The notes beneath the pieces are model-generated. The model ran no database searches. It was not told where the DNA came from and saw only the letters and a program-made list of their open reading frames with translations. From an uncultured delta proteobacterium (GTDB lineage: Bacteria; Desulfobacterota; Binatia; UBA9968), in contig CAVUZH010000013.1 of assembly GCA_963745835.1 (NCBI GenBank), positions 64,001 to 128,000 on the forward strand: 64,000 bases of DNA. Direction: 5' to 3'. Each line of letters begins with the position of its first letter. The first letter of the stretch is position 1. Of this stretch, positions 64-51,624 are shown one piece after another. The position numbers and the translations under genes were made by a program.

Positions 64-1071
64 ATGGGTAAAAAAATACGCGAATTTATGACGCACCGGG
101 AACCGCCGGAGCATATCTGGATGGAACGGGAAGAAAGTGCGGTCATCGGCACCGCCCGCATGGGGCAGAGAATGATCCCCAAGATCCGGCCTTTCGATTT
201 GCTGCGCAGCACACCGCTCAGCGGCAATCGCGCGCGGGCGATGGTTTTCGAGGGCACCAGTTTACGCATCGCGACGGAGTACATCGCCGGGCGTGAAGCG
301 CAACTCACTCGCGCCGCGGATCATGACGTCATCTATCTGCAGTTTTCCGGCCGCTCGAGCATCGAAAGCGAATCGGGGATCGTCGAAATTACCCCAGGTG
401 AAATCGCGCTTGTGCCCGCGGCAATTTCGCACCGCACAGTCGGCTCGGATGAGTGTCTGCGCGTGCGCGTGGCGACCCAGGAGTTCGTGACCGAAGGCGT
501 CGATCCGGAAAAGCCGGTGATGCAACGAGGCTTCACTGTGCGCGCGTCCGAGTCAATTGGCGTCAACGGGCCCGCAGGCGACGGCGGTGATGCCGGGCCG
601 GTTTTGGAACATATTAGCTTTTGGGATCCGCAATCGGATCTCTGGGTCGAGCGCGACGTATCAGCGCTGATCGGCTGTAAACGGGACGGCGGCCGCATCG
701 TGCGAAAATTGAGCGCATTCAATTATTTTACCGGTATGACCGGCAAGGGCGGCGCCCGCGCGCCAGTGCTTTACAACGGCAAAGAGTTCCGCGTCGATGT
801 TTACAATCTTGAAGAAGAGCAGAACGGTTTCCATCGCGGCTGCGACGAAGACGAGATCTGGTTTCAGTTTCGCGGCCACTCGCTGAACCATACGGAATGG
901 GGCGCGCTCGAACTCGACCCCGGTCAGATGACCTACATCCCGCGCGGTGTGGCCCATCGGATTACCGGCAGCGCCGGTTTTCTGCGCATGGTGCTCTACA
1001 GCCGCAAGCTGGTTCACCCGAAATCGTTCAACAACATCTCGGAACGCGAAACACGGTTCGATGTTCAGTAG
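64..1071 (+). CDS. Bicupin protein, homogentisate 1,2-dioxygenase (HmgA)-like
   Basis: Two cupin repeats. C-terminal HRGCDEDE...IPRGVAH resembles the H-x6-E...H metal site of HmgA-type enzymes. GGAGG RBS precedes ATG at 64 (ORF track starts at 37). Confidence 0.7.
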   Translation: MGKKIREFMTHREPPEHIWMEREESAVIGTARMGQRMIPKIRPFDLLRSTPLSGNRARAMVFEGTSLRIATEYIAGREAQLTRAADHDVIYLQFSGRSSIESESGIVEITPGEIALVPAAISHRTVGSDECLRVRVATQEFVTEGVDPEKPVMQRGFTVRASESIGVNGPAGDGGDAGPVLEHISFWDPQSDLWVERDVSALIGCKRDGGRIVRKLSAFNYFTGMTGKGGARAPVLYNGKEFRVDVYNLEEEQNGFHRGCDEDEIWFQFRGHSLNHTEWGALELDPGQMTYIPRGVAHRITGSAGFLRMVLYSRKLVHPKSFNNISERETRFDVQ

Positions 1072-1142
1072 GTTCGCCAGGCTTCACATTCGTTAATACG
1101 ATTGATCTTGAGTCGAAATCAAACGCAGTGAAATAATTCTTC

Positions 1143-2099
1143 ATGGAACGGCTACGCCTCAGCTTATCTTGCAACGAATACGATCGCACGCGCTTTCTGG
1201 TCGATGGTAGCGTTCACGCCGAAGGAATTGACCTCACCGTTATCCCTCTGTCCTCAGAAGAGCGCCACCGGCGGTTTTCCCGCGACCTGGAATTCGACGT
1301 GTGCGAACTTCAAATGGGCGTCTTTCTCGGTTGGATATCGCGCGGCGCGCCGTTCCGCGCGATTCCTGTGTTCCCGCACCGCAAGTTCTGCCACGGCAAT
1401 CTGCTGATCCACGCGGCAAGCCGCATTCAACAGCCCGAAGACCTCGCCGGCAAAACCATCGGCATGCGCGCTCACTTCAATCCGGTTTCGCTCTGGATGC
1501 GCGGCGTGTTGCAAGACGAGTATGGCGTGCCCGCGCGATCGCTCAAGATTCGCACCAACCAGCAGGAGCAGGTTCCCGGGTGGCAACCGCCCGAATGGAT
1601 GGTTATCGAGCGTCTGCCGAAAGGAAAAAAAATCGAAGATGTGTTGCCTGATGGTGAAATCGATGCGTGCATGCTGCCGGAGATCGCCCCCAAGCATTTT
1701 CAAATTTCCGGCGTACGCCGCCTCTGGCCAAACTTTCGCGAGGTCGAAAAAGAATATTATCTGCGTACCAAGATTTTTCCCATTCGCCACGTCCTGGTAG
1801 TAAAAAACTCCGTCTTGGAGCGCCATCCATGGGCAGCGCGCAGCCTCATCGATGCTTTTACGAAAGCCAAGGAGATCGGCATCAAGCACGTGAGCGACCC
1901 ACGGCGATCTTTTCTCGCTTGGTACGGCGCCGAACTGGAGGAAGAGCGGGAGCTATTCGGTGATGATGCGTGGCCCTACAATATCAACGAAAATAGGCAT
2001 GTGCTTGATACCATGGCGCGTTATGCGGAGATGGTTGGAATAACCGAGCGCAGACTTGATCTTAGGGAAATGTTTGCCGAGGGTGTGTTGGCGGACTAA
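1143..2099 (+). CDS. 4,5-dihydroxyphthalate decarboxylase-like protein (PBP2 fold)
   Basis: YDRTRFLVDG, FDVCEL, IPVFPHR, IFPIRHVLVV and WPY motifs are typical of this family. Confidence 0.75.
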   Translation: MERLRLSLSCNEYDRTRFLVDGSVHAEGIDLTVIPLSSEERHRRFSRDLEFDVCELQMGVFLGWISRGAPFRAIPVFPHRKFCHGNLLIHAASRIQQPEDLAGKTIGMRAHFNPVSLWMRGVLQDEYGVPARSLKIRTNQQEQVPGWQPPEWMVIERLPKGKKIEDVLPDGEIDACMLPEIAPKHFQISGVRRLWPNFREVEKEYYLRTKIFPIRHVLVVKNSVLERHPWAARSLIDAFTKAKEIGIKHVSDPRRSFLAWYGAELEEERELFGDDAWPYNINENRHVLDTMARYAEMVGITERRLDLREMFAEGVLAD

Positions 2100-4822: not shown

Positions 4823-5632
4823 TTACTGCTGTCCTCGCGGGATTTCGAATCTGCCCCAAGTTCGCCCCCATGCCGGACGAAAACTGTCCTCGGTCACCGC
4901 AGCATTCGAGTAGCCGGCATCGACGTAGAGACTCTCGCCACAAACAAAATTCGAATCATCGGTCGCCAAAAAGACCGCCGCGCCGACGAGATCCTCGGGT
5001 TTACCCAAGCGACCTACGGGAATGCGGCGCAACCGCTCTGCCGCCTCCTCAGCGGTGAAGGAAATAAAATTCATCGGCCCATAAACGAGCGCATTGACGT
5101 TGACGCCGTAAAATCCCAGTGCCTGAGCGATCGCCCGTGTCATCGCATCGACGCTGGAATAAGCGGCGCTATTGCCGGCCGATTCGCCGGAAGCCACGCG
5201 CGCGTCCGTGGTCAGGAGATTGATGATTTTCCCCGAGCGTTGCTCAGCCATCCGGCGCCCGACGGCCTGACAAGCGAGGAAGTAGGCTTTCGGACCGCGC
5301 TGGAGACACCGATTGAACGACTCTTCGGTAAAGTCCAAGAAATCGCCTTCTTGCGTAACGCCGGAGCAATTGAGCAGCACATCGATACGTCCAAACTCGC
5401 CAACGGCACGGCTGACGGCTTCGTCCACCTGCGTCTTTTTTGTCACGTCGCATTGAAACGCCGATGCTCGTCCGTTCACAGACTGAATGTGCGCCGCCAA
5501 CAGTTCTGCTTTGCCGGCATCCTCGTCGACGATAAAACAGTCTGCTCCTTGGACGGCGAAGCCCGTAACGATTGCTTCAGCGCATGGATGTTGCGCACTT
5601 GTAATAAAAACGGCTTTGTTGAGCAATCGCAT
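4823..5632 (-). CDS. SDR-family oxidoreductase-like protein, atypical active site
   Basis: CDVT, GRIDVLLN, VNVNAL, FVCGESLYVDAG are present. The glycine-rich loop is replaced by TSAQHPCA and YxxxK is absent. Confidence 0.8.
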   Translation of the reverse strand: MRLLNKAVFITSAQHPCAEAIVTGFAVQGADCFIVDEDAGKAELLAAHIQSVNGRASAFQCDVTKKTQVDEAVSRAVGEFGRIDVLLNCSGVTQEGDFLDFTEESFNRCLQRGPKAYFLACQAVGRRMAEQRSGKIINLLTTDARVASGESAGNSAAYSSVDAMTRAIAQALGFYGVNVNALVYGPMNFISFTAEEAAERLRRIPVGRLGKPEDLVGAAVFLATDDSNFVCGESLYVDAGYSNAAVTEDSFRPAWGRTWGRFEIPRGQQ

Positions 5633-45073: not shown

Positions 45074-46270
45074 ATGCTTCAAGTCAAATTCAACCGGTCC
45101 CACAATCAACTCGCTGCATCCTCGAATACTGCCAATCGATCATTGAAGGCAGATGATGCGTTGCTTCTTGTCGCCGCCAGTGAAGGCGACTCGAACATGC
45201 TCTATGCTGTGGGATTCTTTGTCCCGGATCCATTCATTTTTTTTCAGCACAAAAAAAAGAAGTACGTGGTGATGAGCGATCTCGAGCTTGATCGCGCAAA
45301 GCGACAGGCCACGGTGGACCAGGTGCTTTCGCTCTCTGATTATCAGAGAAAGCTGAGGAAGGCGGGCAGCCCTACGACAATGATCGGCATTCTCGAACTG
45401 CTGTTTCGCGAGCGCGGCATACGATCCCTGATGGTGCCGGCGAACTTTTCAGCGCTTTTGGCCGACCAGTTACGGAGCAAAGGCTTCAATTTGGAAGTTA
45501 TGCTAGATCCCTTTTTTCCTGAGCGTGAAATCAAACGCGCGCAGGAAGTGCGGCACATAACCGAGTCGCTGCGTGTGGCCAAATTGGGCCTCGATGCCGG
45601 CATCAGGATGCTCAAAAGGACCAAAGCCCGACGCGACGGGTACTTATATCTAAACGGCTCGAAGCTCACATCCGAAACACTGAAAACCGCCGTGAATACC
45701 ACGATTATGGCTCAAGGATGGCTGCCCAGCCACACGATCATTTCATCCGGTAATCAGTGTGTCGATCCTCATCATGAAGGAACCGGTCCGATCAAGGCGA
45801 ACACTTCGGTCATCTTCGATATCTTTCCCCGCTCGCAAAAGAACGGTTATTTTGGAGATCTCAGCCGGACGGTGGTGCGTGGACGAGCATCGGATAAGCT
45901 CAAGAAAATTTACGCGACTGTGCAGGCCGGACAAAAGATCGGCTTCGACCTGATTCGCGATGGACTCAATGGTAGAGAGATACATCAAAAGATTCTCGAT
46001 CTTTTTGCCCGTGAAGGTTTTCCCACCGGACAAATCAAAGGTCGCATGCAGGGATTCTTCCATGGCACGGGACACGGACTCGGTCTGGATATCCATGAGG
46101 CGCCTCGAATCGCGCCGGTCGATGCCACGCTCAAGAGCGGGCATGTGGTAACGGTAGAACCCGGACTTTATTACCTCGGTATTGGCGGCGTACGACTGGA
46201 AGATGTAGTGCTGGTCACCGACAAGGGCAATAAGAATCTCACCGACTGTCCTCAGTTTCTGGAAATCTAA
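45074..46270 (+). CDS. Xaa-Pro peptidase (M24 family)
   Basis: FDIFP, GDLSRT, HGTGHGLGLDIHE, TVEPGLY, GVRLED; GGAG RBS before ATG 45074. Confidence 0.9.
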   Translation: MLQVKFNRSHNQLAASSNTANRSLKADDALLLVAASEGDSNMLYAVGFFVPDPFIFFQHKKKKYVVMSDLELDRAKRQATVDQVLSLSDYQRKLRKAGSPTTMIGILELLFRERGIRSLMVPANFSALLADQLRSKGFNLEVMLDPFFPEREIKRAQEVRHITESLRVAKLGLDAGIRMLKRTKARRDGYLYLNGSKLTSETLKTAVNTTIMAQGWLPSHTIISSGNQCVDPHHEGTGPIKANTSVIFDIFPRSQKNGYFGDLSRTVVRGRASDKLKKIYATVQAGQKIGFDLIRDGLNGREIHQKILDLFAREGFPTGQIKGRMQGFFHGTGHGLGLDIHEAPRIAPVDATLKSGHVVTVEPGLYYLGIGGVRLEDVVLVTDKGNKNLTDCPQFLEI

Positions 46271-46334
46271 ATCGATCTCTTACGCGGCCACCAGATTCTG
46301 CGCGAACTGCCCGATCTATAATCAGGATTGAATA

Positions 46335-47090
46335 ATGGAAGAAGCAAAGCAGATTGCCGAATGGCTTGACGCGCTGGACCGGCCCAACAAGCAGATGCTT
46401 CGCGCCGCGGTGGACGGTTTAATCGCGGCGTTGCCGGACTCACCTGAAACGGGCAAGAATTTAAAGGACCTGCTGCGCGATTCACAGCGAAGAAATCGCT
46501 GGCCTATCGCCTACATCCTCGCCCACTTGCCTCAACCACCTGCCGAATCATTGGAGATCCTGCTCGATGCTCTTGACGATTCTGACCCAGACGTGCGCTG
46601 GGCCGTTATCTTACTCTTGGCACGCTTGACGAAGCCACAAACGTCAGTAATGGAGCTTACAACATCCCTAATGGCCACCGGCACGGCGACGCAACGCCGC
46701 ATGGTCATCTATTATCTAAAAGAGTTGAAGCGTCAGAACGAAGCTGTTCGACAGGCGCTGTTATCCGCGCTCAACGATTCGGATCCCATGGTTAGAGTTG
46801 CGGCAGTGATCAGCTTGAAAGAACAGGATGTGGATTCGGACGGTAAAACAACTTTATTGGACTTGCTGATGCGCGATCCTGATGTTCGGGTACAGCATGC
46901 GGCGGCGATCACGCTCGCAAGCTTAGGGTCACCGTCCGAAGAATTTTTATCGGCTCTCGATCATGCCACGAAAAGTGCACAGGGGCCGTTGAAGAAGGCT
47001 GCCGTCGCCGCGCAGCGTATCCTCCAGGAAAAAAAAGAGGTCCGTCCCATTAGGCGACTGACGTCGCCGGTGGGACGGACCCCGAGTTAA
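46335..47090 (+). CDS. HEAT-repeat protein
   Basis: Repeated L-x-D-x-D-P-x-V-R units. Confidence 0.8.
   Translation: MEEAKQIAEWLDALDRPNKQMLRAAVDGLIAALPDSPETGKNLKDLLRDSQRRNRWPIAYILAHLPQPPAESLEILLDALDDSDPDVRWAVILLLARLTKPQTSVMELTTSLMATGTATQRRMVIYYLKELKRQNEAVRQALLSALNDSDPMVRVAAVISLKEQDVDSDGKTTLLDLLMRDPDVRVQHAAAITLASLGSPSEEFLSALDHATKSAQGPLKKAAVAAQRILQEKKEVRPIRRLTSPVGRTPS
47029..47081 (-). terminator. Intrinsic terminator of the small minus-strand transcript
   Basis: Minus strand GGTCCGTCCCA...TGGGACGGACC followed by TC and 8 T; inner GGCGAC/GTCGCC hairpin. Confidence 0.8.
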
Positions 47091-47156
47091 CTTCGGTAGA
47101 CTGAGGGGGATTGCTAGGCTTCAAGCTAGAATCCCCGTCAAAGATCCACTTGAAGC

Positions 47157-47201
47157 CTAAGTCTCAGTCACCTCGCAGACAAAACAATTATCATCAATCA
47201 T
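47157..47201 (-). CDS. 14-aa small ORF MIDDNCFVCEVTET
   Basis: ATG at 47201 directly after a very strong SD; TAG at 47157. Confidence 0.55.
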   Translation of the reverse strand: MIDDNCFVCEVTET

Positions 47202-47233
47202 GTCTGGACCACCTCCTTTCCCTGCTGATTTTT

Positions 47234-47262
47234 AGTTTAAGGAGCAAGGTGTCGGCTGTCAA
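47234..47262 (-). promoter_or_regulatory. Sigma-70 promoter of the small RNA
   Basis: TTGACA-17 nt-TAAACT on the minus strand. Confidence 0.75.
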
Positions 47263-47322
47263 CAGGGAAGTGTCGCACGCGGCCAATTTTCACACGCGGA
47301 TGAATCGCGAGGCGATAAAGAA

Positions 47323-48097
47323 CTATGCCGACTGCCAGCCGATGAAACTGATCTGGCGGCCGGTTTCTTTTTTTTCTCGTCGATATGAAAAAAATTCATC
47401 TTTGGCACAGCTAGTACACGGACCGACTCGAAAGATTTGGCTTTGAGGAATGCCGGCGCGATGCAGAATGGTTTCATTTAGATTACGTAAATGAAGGTAA
47501 CTCTTATTATCTCTGGTCTCAATTGAAGAAGTTGCGAGTTCAGCCCATTGTTCGATCAACGGCTGCGCTACATCACGACCGATCTCATAGCAACACGAGT
47601 CAATTGACGGGCCAAGGGCAACTTCCAGCTCCGAAGGCAACACACCATAATTTTCCAGAAAGAATTTGACTGTCTTTGCCGGCGATTCCTTTCAGGGTTC
47701 CACGCCAGCCGGCGTGAACGACCGCGACGATCTTCTGTTCCCGAGCCAGGAAAAGCATAGGCACGCAATCTGCTGTTAGGACCCCCAGAAAAGTATTCTG
47801 CTCGCGCGTCGCCATCCCGTCGGCCTCGCCGGCTTCTTTGAGGTGTGTGTCTTTGACCTCGATCAGGCAATCGCCATGAACCTGCCTCATAGTAACGATG
47901 CGGCCATCATGGATTCCAACGGCGAGCTTCATATCACAGACGTTCTGGCTGACGATCTTGGCATCGTCACCGACGCGATAGGAAACATTGAGCCCGGCAT
48001 AAGCTCCGACGCTTTTGCCACCCTGCCGCCCCATAAAGCCGTGCAGTAAACCTCTGTCGTTTTCCCACTGCGGGACTTTCAACCAGTTGATTTTCAT
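47323..48097 (-). CDS. pgeF: Peptidoglycan editing factor / purine nucleoside phosphorylase PgeF (YfiH); +1 frameshift near 47680
   Basis: QVHG, ADG, TADCVP, HAGWRG in one frame; GPSI..CCYE, CTSC, FFSYRR, GRQ in the next. Confidence 0.88.
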
Positions 48098-48222
48098 ACC
48101 GGGTATTATGTTTGGATCGTCCGCGCGACGCAAGTCGATGAAGAAACCCCGGGCCAGTTATTCACTCTTGCATTGTGGCCCAATTTCGCCGAAATATACC
48201 CCGATAGCTTCGGCAGTGCTAC

Positions 48223-51200
48223 ATGACAAACGGACGATACATCGGCACGCTCAAACAAGCCGGCTTCTTCGCTTTTTTTTGTACCCAATTTCTCGGCGCC
48301 TTCAACGACAACTTTTATAAGATCGTCGTATCTCTGGTGGCGCTCAACGCCGCAAGCCCGCAAAGCGACAGCTTATATGTCGACCTGATCGCCTTCCTCT
48401 TTATCCTGCCTTCCGCGCTCTTCTCCGGCTATGCCGGCCATTTAGCGGATGTCTACAGCAAGCGCTCAATTCTTGTCGCGGTGAAGTGCTTCGAGATCGT
48501 GATCATGGGGATGGGGTTTGCGGCCTTTTTGTCGGGCTATGTCGAGCCTATGCTGGTCATCGTTTTTCTCATGGGCCTTCATTCAGCGTTCTTCAGCCCC
48601 GCGAAATACGCCATTCTGCCCGAGATGCTGCCCGAGACTGAACTCTCGCGCGGCAATGGCTTGTTGGAGATGAGCACCTTTATGGCGATCATCTTGGGAG
48701 TTTCTCTTGGCGGGGCGATTTACTCGATTTGGGAGGACCAGCTTCCCATGGTCGGTCTCATCATGATCGCCATCGCCGTACTCGGAACATTAGCCAGTTT
48801 GAAAATATCTCCGGTGCCCGCGTCGGGCTCGACAAAGAGTTTCAATCTCAATCCGTTCGGTGAAATCTGGCATGGCATAAAGCGGCTTTATCCCGATAGG
48901 CCGCTCCGCCTGACGGTGATTGGAATATCGTATTTTTGGTTCTTGGGAGCTTTGGTCCAGCTCGCTATGTTGTTTTTCGGTAAAGAATTGCTCGAGCTCG
49001 ATGAACTCCACATCAGCCTGTTAGGGACTTTCCTGGCCATTGGCATCGGCATCGGCAGTTTGGCGGCCGGAAAGCTATCCGGCGATAAGATCGAGCTCGG
49101 CCTCGTGCCTCTGGGTTCGATTTCGATGGGATTTTGTTTATTGCTTGTGTCGTATTCCGCATCATCCTATTTTTATACTTCGGCGTCTCTCGTTCTGCTG
49201 GGCTTTTCAGGCGGGCTCTTCGCGGTGCCGCTCAACGCGCTACTGCAACATCGAAGCGGTCGCGAGGAAAAAGGGCAACTGATCGCGACCAACAACTTTT
49301 TCAATACCATTGGCATTATTTTGGCTGCGGCCATTCACTGGGTGTTAAATAGCGGCCTTCAACTCTCGCCCGACTGGATCGTCTTTTTGATTGGAATACT
49401 CACCCTCATGGCCACGGCCATTGTCTTACTGGTTCTGCCCGACTATTTCGTGCGCCTCGTCGCCTGGTTATTGACGCACACGCTTTACCGAATACGGATT
49501 GCGGGCGAAGAAAATGCTCCCCTACGCAGTCCGGCGCTGTTGGTGTCAAATCATGTATCGTTTGCCGATGCCCTCCTGATCGGCGCGTGTCTGCCCGGTT
49601 TCGTTCGCTTCATGCTGCATCGCGATTACTATGAGAACCAATGGCTCAACTGGTTTTTCCGTTTGATGAAGGCGATTCCGATCCGGGCAACCCATCGCCG
49701 CGACGTCGTCAATTCTCTTAAGCAAGCTCGCCAGGAGCTCGAGGCCGGACACGTCGTTTGCATTTTTGCCGAAGGGGCAATCACCCGCACGGGCCACATT
49801 CTTCCATTCAAGCGCGGCTTCGAAAAAATTGTCGAGGGCACGGGCGCGCCGATTATCCCGGTTCACTTGGACCAAGTCTGGGGCAGTGTTTTTAGCTTTC
49901 ATGGCGGGCGATTTTTCTGGAAATGGCCCAAGCTCTTTCCCTATCCGGTCACAGTCTCCTTTGGAAAACCGCTGCCGGCCAATTCGACCGCAAACGAAGT
50001 CCGCCAGAACGTCCTGGAACTCGCCAGCGAAGCGGTGCGGTATCGCCGCCAACCGGCCGATTTGTTGCCCGCCAAATTCGTTCAGATGGCTAAACGTCGA
50101 TGGTTTTCCTTCTGTATGGCAGACACCACCGGCACCGAACTTACTTTCGGCAAGGCGTTGATCGGCAGCATGATGCTGTCCCGCTGGGTGGGCGAGCATT
50201 GCCAGGAAGACAGGATGGTAGGGGTCATGCTCCCGGCTTCGGTCGGTGGCGCGCTGGCGAACATCGCGATCATGTTGGCGGGGAAGGTGCCCGTAAACCT
50301 CAATTTCACTGCCGGGCAAGATGCAATGTTATCAGCCATCAAGCAATGCGGCATCAAAACAATTCTGACTTCGCGGCTATTTCTGACCAAGGCAAGCCTG
50401 GACGAGATGCCCGGAATGGTTTTTCTCGAGGAAGTTAGAAAGACATTCACTGCCGCGCTAAAAATAGTAACCGCCGCCAAAGCAGCGTTGTTGCCGGCGG
50501 GTTACTTGAACCGAAACGTGACGAATAATGCGGCGCCTGAAGATCTCGCTACAGTGATTTTTTCTAGTGGCAGCACCGGCGCCCCTAAGGGAGTGATGCT
50601 CTCCCATTCTAATATCCTCTCCAACGTTGAAGGTATCTGCCAGGTAATTCAGTTCACGAACAAAGACCGCATCATGGGGATATTGCCTTTGTTTCACTCA
50701 TTTGGTTTCACTGCGACAATTTGGCTGCCGCTCCTGGCAGGCTTTGGCGTGGTTTACCATCCAAACCCGATGGACGCCAAAACCATAGGAGAAACCGTGC
50801 AGAAGCATCAGGCTACCTTGCTGATCAGCACGCCAACTTTTTACGCGGGTTACCTGAAGCGCTGTAGTCCTGAGGAATTTTCCAGCCTGCGCTATGCTAT
50901 CGCCGGCGCAGAGAAGTTACGCGAACAGATCACCCGAGGTTACAAAGAAAAATATGGAATTGATCTGCTCGAAGGCTACGGCTGCACAGAACTCGCGCCG
51001 GTGGTCTCGGTTAATATTCCGGACGTAATCGACGGCGACGAAAAACAGATCGGTCACAAGCCGGGTAGCGTCGGACATCCCATTCCGGGGATTGCGGTTA
51101 AGGTCATCGATCCTGACACGGAGCTGCCCTTAGCCTGCGGGCAAGAAGGTTTGCTTCTCGTTAAAGGCCCCAATTGCATGCTCGGCTATCTCCACCAGCC

Positions 51201-51624
51201 TGAGCTCACGGCGCAAGTCTTCAGGGATGAATGGTACGTAACCGGTGATATAGCGACAATCGACGAGGATGGGTTCATACGAATCACGGATCGAATGACT
51301 CGGTTCAGCAAAATCGGCGGTGAAATGGTTCCGCATATGAGGATCGAAGAAATAATAAATCAGATTCTTGGTAGTGCCGCAGCTGTCGTCACAGCCCTAC
51401 CGGATGAGCAACGTGGTGAGAAGCTGATCGCCTTTTACACGCATAACGGCATTAGCAGAGACGAACTCTGGAATAGGCTTAACCAATCAGCACTACCGAA
51501 ACTTTGGATACCGAAAAGAGAGAATCTCTTCACTCTCGAATCCATGCCACTGCTCGGATCGGGGAAAATCGATTTGAGACAAATCAAATTGCTAGCTCAG
51601 CAACAAGCTGAGAAAGCCGAGTAA
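48223..51624 (+). CDS. aas: LplT-MFS / acyltransferase / acyl-ACP synthetase fusion (Aas-type)
   Basis: TQFLGAFNDN MFS domain; NHVSFAD and FAEG (PlsC); FSSGSTGAPKG and EGYGCTE (AMP-binding). Confidence 0.92.
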   Translation: MTNGRYIGTLKQAGFFAFFCTQFLGAFNDNFYKIVVSLVALNAASPQSDSLYVDLIAFLFILPSALFSGYAGHLADVYSKRSILVAVKCFEIVIMGMGFAAFLSGYVEPMLVIVFLMGLHSAFFSPAKYAILPEMLPETELSRGNGLLEMSTFMAIILGVSLGGAIYSIWEDQLPMVGLIMIAIAVLGTLASLKISPVPASGSTKSFNLNPFGEIWHGIKRLYPDRPLRLTVIGISYFWFLGALVQLAMLFFGKELLELDELHISLLGTFLAIGIGIGSLAAGKLSGDKIELGLVPLGSISMGFCLLLVSYSASSYFYTSASLVLLGFSGGLFAVPLNALLQHRSGREEKGQLIATNNFFNTIGIILAAAIHWVLNSGLQLSPDWIVFLIGILTLMATAIVLLVLPDYFVRLVAWLLTHTLYRIRIAGEENAPLRSPALLVSNHVSFADALLIGACLPGFVRFMLHRDYYENQWLNWFFRLMKAIPIRATHRRDVVNSLKQARQELEAGHVVCIFAEGAITRTGHILPFKRGFEKIVEGTGAPIIPVHLDQVWGSVFSFHGGRFFWKWPKLFPYPVTVSFGKPLPANSTANEVRQNVLELASEAVRYRRQPADLLPAKFVQMAKRRWFSFCMADTTGTELTFGKALIGSMMLSRWVGEHCQEDRMVGVMLPASVGGALANIAIMLAGKVPVNLNFTAGQDAMLSAIKQCGIKTILTSRLFLTKASLDEMPGMVFLEEVRKTFTAALKIVTAAKAALLPAGYLNRNVTNNAAPEDLATVIFSSGSTGAPKGVMLSHSNILSNVEGICQVIQFTNKDRIMGILPLFHSFGFTATIWLPLLAGFGVVYHPNPMDAKTIGETVQKHQATLLISTPTFYAGYLKRCSPEEFSSLRYAIAGAEKLREQITRGYKEKYGIDLLEGYGCTELAPVVSVNIPDVIDGDEKQIGHKPGSVGHPIPGIAVKVIDPDTELPLACGQEGLLLVKGPNCMLGYLHQPELTAQVFRDEWYVTGDIATIDEDGFIRITDRMTRFSKIGGEMVPHMRIEEIINQILGSAAAVVTALPDEQRGEKLIAFYTHNGISRDELWNRLNQSALPKLWIPKRENLFTLESMPLLGSGKIDLRQIKLLAQQQAEKAE

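Follow-up and report, generated by a model that had tools for sequence, protein, structure and literature searches.

A 64,000-nucleotide (nt) stretch of contig CAVUZH010000013.1, from an uncultured delta proteobacterium of the class Binatia (assembly GCA_963745835.1; the whole stretch is hereafter called the window), carries on its minus strand, between positions 47262 and 47029, a unit whose sequence reads, in order, as a promoter, a long Shine-Dalgarno (SD) sequence, a mini open reading frame (ORF), a folded stretch and a terminator. The question raised by this locus is whether the unit serves to make the encoded peptide, to make a structured RNA or to engage the ribosome. A first-pass annotation of the bare sequence had proposed an RNA that grips 30S subunits or, alternatively, a mini-mRNA for a CxxC metal/redox peptide, and each of the five features on which it relied (promoter, long SD, ORF, nested helices and terminator) was found where it had been placed. 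Judged by sequence, the element is a divergent member of the Ms_IGR-5 family of small RNAs (sRNAs; Rfam family RF02471), and we hold with moderate confidence that it is a translated, structured sRNA acting via contact with the anti-SD tail of the ribosome. The kind of RNA is already known, RF02471 having been first reported in Mycobacterium smegmatis; the window copy is new, falls below the threshold of the family model and belongs to another lineage.

We begin with the extended SD sequence, GAAAGGAGGUGGUCCAG (SD1; 47204-47220, minus strand), which is GAAAGGAGGTGGTCCAG when read from 47220 to 47204. The 16S gene of the window's own genome ends with ...CTGGATCACCTCCTTTCTA (read in L001), and because this 3' end was read in the genome itself, the 17-nt complementarity with one G-U pair that had been drawn against a canonical tail is real. 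The SD1 letters AGGAGGTGGTC are invariant in 36/36 aligned relatives. Across 149 distinct elements, among the matches listed, the contiguous pairing run with the 16S tail is 14-22 nt long (mode 17), a count that includes G-U pairs and assumes the window's 16S tail for all organisms. As a control, the longest upstream runs for 67 window ORFs of at least 150 amino acids (aa) were 4-10 nt, compared with 16 nt for the element with the same tail. The 12-mer core of SD1 occurs four times in the 7.3-Mb genome: one occurrence is the element and one the rDNA complement, and the two others, which we read as lying inside coding stretches, were set aside as chance. The 5' part of the window RNA folds no better than shuffled sequences (z = +0.27) and is, for that reason, taken to be open, so that SD1 can safely be predicted to be accessible. 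A minimum-energy fold of the whole transcript pairs SD1 with the U-tail of the terminator, and this pairing was taken as a tail-folding artefact. The proposal of a 30S-gripping RNA fits these results, in that the best-conserved letters are those able to pair with the 16S 3' end; it also fits an excerpt of a Ribo-seq study of M. abscessus and M. smegmatis, which mentions "significant ribosomal reads" on Ms_IGR-5 homologues (PMC4974804).

SD1 is followed by the mini-ORF, MIDDNCFVCEVTET (47157-47201, minus strand), which has 14 codons plus TAG, with its ATG at 47201 and its stop at 47159-47157. Inside it lies a second, SD-like site, GAGGUG (SD2; 47169-47174, minus strand; codons Glu-Val), which ends exactly 9 nt before the stop. 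In all 40 relatives' loci found by BLAST the frame is kept, with 11-14 codons, an ATG or GTG start and the ending CEV[A/T/P]ET-TAG, and so are the motif AGCAGrGAAAGGAGGTGGTC, the structured part and the terminator. A wider set came from an exact-pattern scan (AAGGAGGTGRTC, then 15-45 nt, then TGYGAGGTG) of a species-representative genome collection. Among the matches listed, an in-frame ATG, GTG or TTG stands 3-13 nt after AAGGAGGTG in 154/159 pattern matches, compared with 5 and 53 of 159 for starts in the other two frames, and a stop codon lies exactly 18 nt from the start of the Cys codon, that is 9 nt past GAGGUG, in 155/159. In these 155 the stop is TAG in 139, TGA in 9 and TAA in 7, with no sense codon. 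The 159 matches were not de-duplicated, and some of the scan loci come from the same genomes as the relatives.

Because the pattern had forced TGY-GAG-GTG, weaker RF02471 matches (20, all from Actinomycetota) were also fetched; 19 of the 20 gave the element, and L177, which gave none in the scan, was dropped. The sets free of the pattern's bias are thus the 40 relatives and these 19 model-found members. GAGGUG is invariant in both (36/36 relatives and 19/19 model-found members), and the stop lies 9 nt past it in 19/19 model-found members (TAG in 11, TAA in 4 and TGA in 4). The "Cys" codon encodes Cys in 0/19 of them, CGT/CGC, CTC/CTG or CCG/CCC standing in its place. By our reading of the listing, 12/19 have a usual start, 6/19 have an in-frame CTG only and 1/19 has neither, and all seven without a usual start (L162-L164, L166, L167, L174 and L168, the last of which lacks ATG, GTG, TTG and CTG) keep the frame open. 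L168 contains three TAGs out of frame within the ORF, and its frame is open up to the fixed stop.

GAG GTG never varies in the 36 aligned relatives and the first base of the next codon does (G, A or C); since the synonymous sites of GAG GTG are fixed, the constraint appears to act on the RNA. The N-terminal part of the peptide varies in sequence and length, and its last three residues vary with P1, the helix formed by their codons, still paired (AAR, AAS, AET, TET, PET, VAS, VPS, AEA, ADS, ATP, IVT and more). The CxxC motif therefore fails as a conserved feature, several relatives having a single Cys and 19/19 actinobacterial members none, and with it falls the mini-mRNA for a CxxC metal/redox peptide, because Arg, Leu or Pro codons take the place of the Cys codon and co-vary with the 5' end of the RNA and because both ends of the peptide change. 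From the sequences compared, the conserved features are the start codon, the openness of the frame and the position of the stop, and the encoded peptide is not selected.

The last ORF codons enter a folded domain. The stretch 47176-47082 (95 nt, from the last ORF codons to the spacer before the terminator) has a predicted folding energy of -36.5 kcal/mol (z = -3.3). Run on three families aligned with MAFFT, RNAalifold recovered the helices P0a, P1 and P3 only in part because the 3' domains differ, and the helices were then named by hand on MAFFT alignments. P1 joins the GGUG of SD2 and the six next bases to a distant strand ending in ..CAGnnACC; in the window its 5' strand is GGUGACUGAG (47163-47172, minus strand), of which the GGUG forms the first part, and its 3' strand, CUCAGUCUACC (47095-47105, minus strand), ends in ..ACC and masks SD2. 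In alignment A2, which consists of 40 hand-checked sequences from several phyla (of 143 distinct, among the matches listed), 91.3% of the P1 cells are paired and 6/10 pairs are changed on both sides, as in GGUGUCCGUC with GACGGACACC and GGUGACUUUCC with GGAAGUCACC. The covariation score of P1 was reached by 0/500 shuffles, and partners slid along the sequence pair in 27-40%. Within GGUG:CACC the first three pairs never change and the fourth is mostly G-C; in the window's own family P1 is 99% paired. Scripts for finding the 3' strand of P1 mis-assigned many GC-rich actinobacterial loci.

A shorter helix, P0a, joins four bases near the 5' end of the RNA to the codon before GAG. In the window it is formed by GCAG (47222-47225, minus strand) and CUGC (47175-47178, minus strand), the latter being one base plus the second Cys codon. 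P0a is 91.3% paired in 99 non-Binatia sequences, and the pair that involves the wobble base of the codon is AU in 71, GC in 9 and GU in 2 of them. An alignment fold of the window's clade gives four pairs, GC/GU only, and the 19 divergent members show CGCG:CGCG, CGAG:CUCG, CCAG:CUGG and CGGG:CCCG. Because a shuffle control on helix length was weak in these 19 (mean 4.4 pairs versus 3.6), the case for P0a rests on the letters that co-vary at fixed positions. A neighbouring helix, P0b, pairs the 3' extension of the SD (GUCC...) with the bases before the Cys codon; it contains some double changes, and its pairing reaches 78-83%. If both P0a and P0b formed, the SD core would bulge out unpaired and a loop would contain the start codon.

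Downstream of the frame, the P2 hairpin (47115-47159, minus strand; 47159-47149 with 47125-47115) has the stop codon in its base. It is seen in the minimum-energy fold, is 97.5% paired and has three pairs changed on both sides in 20 distinct sequences. Across it lies P3, a pseudoknot (47106-47136, minus strand; GGGGAUU at 47136-47130 with AAUCCCC at 47112-47106) that is 89.7% paired. An alternative to P3 is P3', a local hairpin (47129-47147, minus strand; GGAUC at 47147-47143 with GAUUC at 47133-47129; alignment pairs 29-33 with 44-48), which is mostly paired and has one pair UA/CG. From sequence, the P3 pseudoknot and the P3' hairpin both appear compatible with the members of the window's family. 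A tRNA-like or T-arm reading of P3/P1 was dropped, since P1 takes up the ..ACC and tRNA models gave no match.

We then asked whether the element belongs to a family already described, as the first-pass annotation had allowed for. The whole window gave no match to Rfam at gathering score. The RF02471 (Ms_IGR-5) model aligns to the element end to end (model positions 1-184); its E value is 0.0019 when 501 nt are searched and 0.0064 in a search of the whole genome, which yields the element as the sole match. It is this end-to-end alignment and single genome-wide match that lead us to regard the window element as a divergent relative of an uncharacterised sRNA family, and the caveat that similar RNAs might already have been reported was well placed. 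Of 18 scan loci tested, 11 score above the RF02471 cut-off (48.6-185 bits): seven actinobacterial loci (63.6-185 bits) and four outside Actinomycetota (L065, 67.7 bits; L153, 59.9; L131, 54.8; L095, 48.6), with titles naming Methylomirabilis, Dehalococcoidia (two) and Ignavibacteriales. No RF02471 match was obtained in the other 7/18 (two Acidobacteriota, a Rokubacteria, a Nitrospiria, a Leptospira, a Thermodesulfobacteriota-labelled and an unassigned locus). The series is thus continuous, in that intermediates pass the cut-off and R1, a model built from the 40 sequences of A2 with Binatia-type and actinobacterial members included, finds 5/5 carriers.

The architecture is likewise shared. In Ms_IGR-5, as in the window element, the promoter is of housekeeping type and a long SD (AAGGAGGUGGUCC) close to the 5' end precedes a mini-ORF; GAGGUG is followed by a stop 9 nt on, a GGUG..:..CACC helix spans a long range and a hairpin stands at the 3' end. 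The window element differs in that its P0a register is shifted by one base, the sequence of its 3' domain (P2/P3) is another, its terminator is a classical U-tailed one and its host belongs to another phylum. Excerpts of the published work place M. smegmatis IGR-5 between MSMEG_5794 and MSMEG_5795 (bioRxiv 10.1101/2021.12.14.472595; see also PMC10454040) and describe it as NAD-capped, with a +1A start, and as "validated but yet uncharacterized" (bioRxiv 10.1101/2021.12.14.472595). In the literature searched, outside the original IGR-5 paper and the Rfam text, there was no account of a mini-ORF with an unconserved peptide, of the SD2-stop spacing or of a spread over several phyla, and a search by sequence strings returned no relevant paper. 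The mycobacterial ncRv0810-0812 was considered and rejected, being a different element, the leader of Rv0810c.

A second family, CC2171 (RF01867), an sRNA of Caulobacter and Methylobacteriaceae, bears some resemblance: its Rfam consensus starts with the same long SD (GAAAGGAGGUGAUCCAG) followed by GUG, and a long-range helix closes the RNA, which also carries a terminator. Unlike the window element, it has no GAGGUG-N9-stop visible in the printed consensus. CC2171 is expressed, according to an excerpt of one study (bioRxiv 10.1101/2022.01.24.477521). The RF01867 model scored 16.1 bits on the window (E = 0.34), below its 75-bit cut-off, and a genome-wide search at E up to 1 gave no match; homology of CC2171 with the window element is, on these sequences, a lead. 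Sub-cut-off matches to RF02471 were seen in the control genomes of Caulobacter vibrioides and Thermus thermophilus, and matches to RF01867 in six control genomes, below the cut-off in the five that are non-Caulobacter; some of these may be 16S 3'-end complements and others distant relatives.

To see how far the element extends, we compared its occurrence across lineages. By BLAST, the 241-nt unit matches 40/41 related genomes (G000 included) from three families of one order, and 26/26 high-quality related genomes match, with one match each except for one that is split over two contigs. The exact-pattern scan returned at least 119 loci. Four of its loci lie inside long ORFs and were discarded as chance (L046, L099, L148 and L156); the remaining loci among the matches listed share the element's build. 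The titles among the matches listed include, from Actinomycetota, Mycobacterium, Mycolicibacterium, Streptomyces, Kitasatospora, Gordonia, Brachybacterium, Saccharopolyspora and Nocardiopsis, and otherwise Terriglobales, Solibacteraceae (Acidobacteriota), Rokubacteria/Methylomirabilota, Dehalococcoidia, Candidatus Entotheonella, Nitrospiria and Candidatus Binatia, together with single records titled Leptospira and Ignavibacteriales. The exact peptide of the window recurs in L117 and L124, titled "Candidatus Binatia" and "uncultured delta proteobacterium". The family's current label is "Actinobacteria sRNA", function unknown; its design also stands in records titled with at least six other major lineages.

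Within Actinomycetota, RF02471 matches 44/151 evenly drawn genomes at E <= 0.001, 20 of them above the cut-off, and within Acidobacteriota model R1 matches 14/101. In the window's class 5/10 genomes match by exact pattern, and R1, with 150 first-look candidates scored per genome, found the element in 0/5 of the class genomes that had no pattern match. As a positive control, R1 gave one match each in 5/5 carriers (three from the window's class, one from Terriglobales and one from Rokubacteria). About 290 other genomes of the window's GTDB phylum gave five pattern matches, all judged to be chance. Because the filters were strict and only part of the candidates were scored, these prevalence counts are lower bounds. 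The unpublished genomes G012 (L016), G018 (L012), G043 (L053), G046, G063, G093 and G165 are counted in the 40/41 relatives, the 44/151 Actinomycetota, the 14/101 Acidobacteriota and the 5/5 control of R1, and enter alignments A1 (L012, L016), A2 and A3 (L053) and A4 (L012) and model R1; none of the conclusions rests solely on these genomes.

Across phyla the 5' part (SD1, frame, SD2 and stop) is invariant and the 3' domain differs between clades. The stretch AAUYCC..CAG..ACC is conserved within large clades, and AAUYCC is missing from the members of Rokubacteria type, a type found in other Binatia families as well. Since it is the 5' part that is invariant and the 3' domain that differs, the functional core appears to be the part that contacts the ribosome. 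In other families of the window's class (G233, G305, G338, L112 and L151) there is a variant element whose peptides end in ..CEVVAS or similar and whose 3' domain, without AAUYCC, is closer to the Rokubacteria/Methylomirabilota variant than to the window's type; its sequences suggest an old divergence or a transfer between lineages. In the Terriglobales locus L053, from an unpublished genome, a tmRNA gene (1024-1385, minus strand) lies ~3 kb from the element and a tRNA (4832-4903, plus strand) ~300 nt downstream of it, a proximity that is probably a coincidence.

We posited that, because selection falls on the ribosome contacts, the start and stop positions and the helices and not on the peptide, the anti-SD tail is the target of this RNA and the act of translation is its point. 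Upon the observed conservation, covariation, start and stop patterns and family link one can build, conditionally, an account of 30S capture, re-pairing at termination and physiological role. The RNA would be a separately transcribed species of ~200 nt, whose barely structured 5' third, with SD1, would capture a 30S subunit, and a start codon 2-11 nt past SD1 would open a frame of 11-19 codons. In the folded RNA the ..CACC strand of P1 would mask SD2; a translating ribosome would unwind P0 (the 5' end with the codon before GAG) and P1 (the last four codons with ..CAGnnACC), expose SD2 and then terminate at the stop fixed 9 nt past it. Once the stop codon occupied the A site, SD2 would be placed 6 nt ahead of the P-site codon. 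This is a usual distance from an SD to a start codon, and a terminating ribosome could, at this spacing, re-pair with the RNA. The role would be to hold or sense free (idle) ribosomes, or to let translation gate the RNA's own fold and stability.

A more elaborate form of this account is a closed loop, which we put forward tentatively and think rather doubtful as it stands. Because P0 holds SD1 and SD2 side by side, the same ribosome could be re-captured at SD2 and handed back to the start, and the RNA would be a reservoir or gauge of idle ribosomes, an old class spanning several phyla of which CC2171 would be a further branch. If so, it would be for the ribosome what 6S/Ms1 RNA is for RNA polymerase. 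For the family itself, two observations besides its spread over lineages change the picture: selection keeps the features of ribosome contact and the start and stop positions but not the peptide, and a second SD-like site stands at a fixed distance from the stop. Were the favoured account of an sRNA directed at the anti-SD tail true, a ribosome-directed member would join the small set of widespread housekeeping regulatory RNAs, and the element would be a natural case of very long SD pairing in use. The account is testable in laboratory hosts such as M. smegmatis or Streptomyces.

Several results weigh against this account or loosen its ties. The window copy scores 23.7 bits with RF02471, below the 45-bit cut-off, and the pattern set required TGY-GAG-GTG by construction. 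The members with only a CTG or with no start may be translated weakly or may not need translation. GAGGUG and CACC could be invariant on account of a tertiary contact or a bound protein and not of anti-SD pairing, and the patchy distribution in the genomes compared argues against an indispensable housekeeping role. Finally, the soil metatranscriptome contigs described below extend over the flanks, so that a species of ~200 nt is not delimited by them.

Other explanations have to be set beside it. Were the element a conventional trans-acting sRNA, its 3' domain (P2/P3, with the C-rich AAUYCC..CAG) would pair with mRNAs or bind a protein, and the SD and ORF would only load a ribosome that shields the 5' end against decay, in the manner of the 5' SD-type stabilisers described in Bacillus. 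We think this unlikely, though it has real points in its favor: no more than ~10 nt separate SD1 from the predicted 5' end, the 3' domain folds stably and co-varies, with AAUYCC..CAG..ACC kept in large clades, and an excerpt of a secondary paper credits the original M. smegmatis IGR-5 study with northern blotting. However, the 3' domain is the variable part across phyla, the Rokubacteria type doing without AAUYCC, whereas SD1, GAGGUG and the stop position stay constant, and a mere stabiliser would need no stop fixed 9 nt past GAGGUG with all three stop codons in use. That the peptide is the product, whether as a Cys-containing (CxxC or CEV) metal, redox or signalling peptide or as a ribosome-arresting nascent chain, is improbable in our judgment. 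The frame is kept everywhere and Glu-Val is invariant, and a chain of 11-19 residues would still be within the exit tunnel, as known arrest peptides are. Yet 0/19 actinobacterial members keep the Cys, its codon co-varying with the 5' strand, and several relatives have one Cys; the N- and C-terminal residues vary freely; the synonymous positions of Glu-Val are fixed (36/36 and 19/19), which points to the RNA; and no maturation or export genes are linked to the element across clades. Dual-function sRNAs and leader-peptide RNAs (SgrS/SgrT, SR1/SR1P and trpL-type leaders) also carry a translated small frame on a structured RNA in which translation competes with folding, but the window element differs from them in its unconserved peptide, in the lack of a downstream cis target and in that its conserved letters are two sites complementary to the anti-SD.

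A cis-acting element, whether part of the 3' untranslated region of the pgeF-like gene upstream or an attenuator with a leader peptide that serves a neighbour, is very improbable. It could draw on the pgeF-like ORFs that are its neighbours at 31 loci in the clade of the window and on one RNA contig (47030-47300) that extends past the promoter; against this, a promoter and a terminator belong to the element itself, the next gene downstream runs towards it, one family of the order has the pgeF-like ORF on the opposite strand, no same-strand downstream neighbour recurs across clades and no neighbour is shared between phyla, and homologues are given, in excerpts of the source lists, as sRNAs from RNA-seq in Streptomyces lividans and S. 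avermitilis, in the latter as an sRNA transcription unit. The small ORF on a structured RNA with its stop inside a helix would also suit a type I toxin mRNA or a tmRNA-like rescue RNA, of which the first-pass annotation had been reminded, but here the probability shrinks to almost nothing. Acidic and hydrophilic, the peptide MIDDNCFVCEVTET lacks any hydrophobic stretch or membrane segment, and the element is single-copy and syntenic within clades; a promoter scan of the plus strand over 46000-48500 found none, an antisense partner not having been specifically sought. Like tmRNA, the element has a short frame in a structured, ribosome-engaging RNA; unlike tmRNA, it is equipped with an SD and a start codon of its own and lacks a tRNA-like domain, and tmRNA and tRNA models of Rfam gave no match at gathering score in the window or at E up to 10 in 46900-47400, so that the tmRNA-like reading is abandoned.

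The borders of the unit bear on its independence. The promoter (47234-47262, minus strand) consists of TTGACA (47262-47257), a 17-nt spacer and TAAACT (47239-47234), matches the consensus at 10/12 positions and is the sole promoter-like site on either strand of 46000-48500; the transcript is predicted to start a few bases 3' of it, at ~47230-47226. Because shuffled controls give a mean of 1.6 promoter-like sites, one site is no excess, and the promoter is accepted on its conservation: the upstream sequences of relatives show a -35/-10 pair at equal distance wherever they are complete. The upstream sequence of L023 lacks a TTGACA-like -35, and those of L006 and L019 are cut. At the other end, the intrinsic terminator (47029-47083, minus strand) has a 13-bp outer and a 6-bp inner stem followed by eight U (47036-47029), with a predicted energy of -39 kcal/mol (z = -8.2), and a hairpin and U-run stand at the equivalent place in relatives. 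The description of the locus as a dedicated unit with its own promoter and its own terminator is thus upheld.

Soil metatranscriptome contigs from four studies contain the window element at 95-100% identity. Contig X4 (272 nt) covers 47030-47300, and contig X7 (159 nt) covers 47074-47219 and then runs into adapter letters. These contigs show the presence of the element in soil metatranscriptomes, neither transcript ends nor an expression level, and positions uncovered in single runs carry no meaning.

The upstream neighbour on the same strand is a pgeF-type gene (Pfam Cu-oxidase_4), and the downstream one is a convergent HEAT-repeat gene (ORF 46335-47090, plus strand; HEAT_2, E = 1.4e-27) that overlaps the terminator. 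Because this ORF runs into the hairpin, the hairpin may end both transcripts. HEAT-like ORFs adjoin the element in 34 loci of the window's clade, and a HEAT-like ORF ending inside its 3' part recurs in these 34. Mycobacterial copies have a different gene neighbourhood, and a comparison of neighbour gene families across loci found none common to different phyla; Pfam was run on the window's own neighbours only, names of neighbour clusters were read from sequence, and high-GC loci gave many spurious ORFs. The pgeF/YfiH-type gene of the window (47323-48133, minus strand) is split into two overlapping ORFs, ORF 47600-48133 covering profile positions 2-128 and ORF 47323-47643 positions 140-237; the frameshift near 47600-47643 is either real or an assembly error, the contamination of the genome being given as 9.3%. 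Beyond it lies an 1133-aa ORF (48223-51624, plus strand) with MFS_1, Acyltransferase and AMP-binding domains, which we take to resemble a lysophospholipid transporter fused to an acyltransferase/acyl-ACP synthetase.

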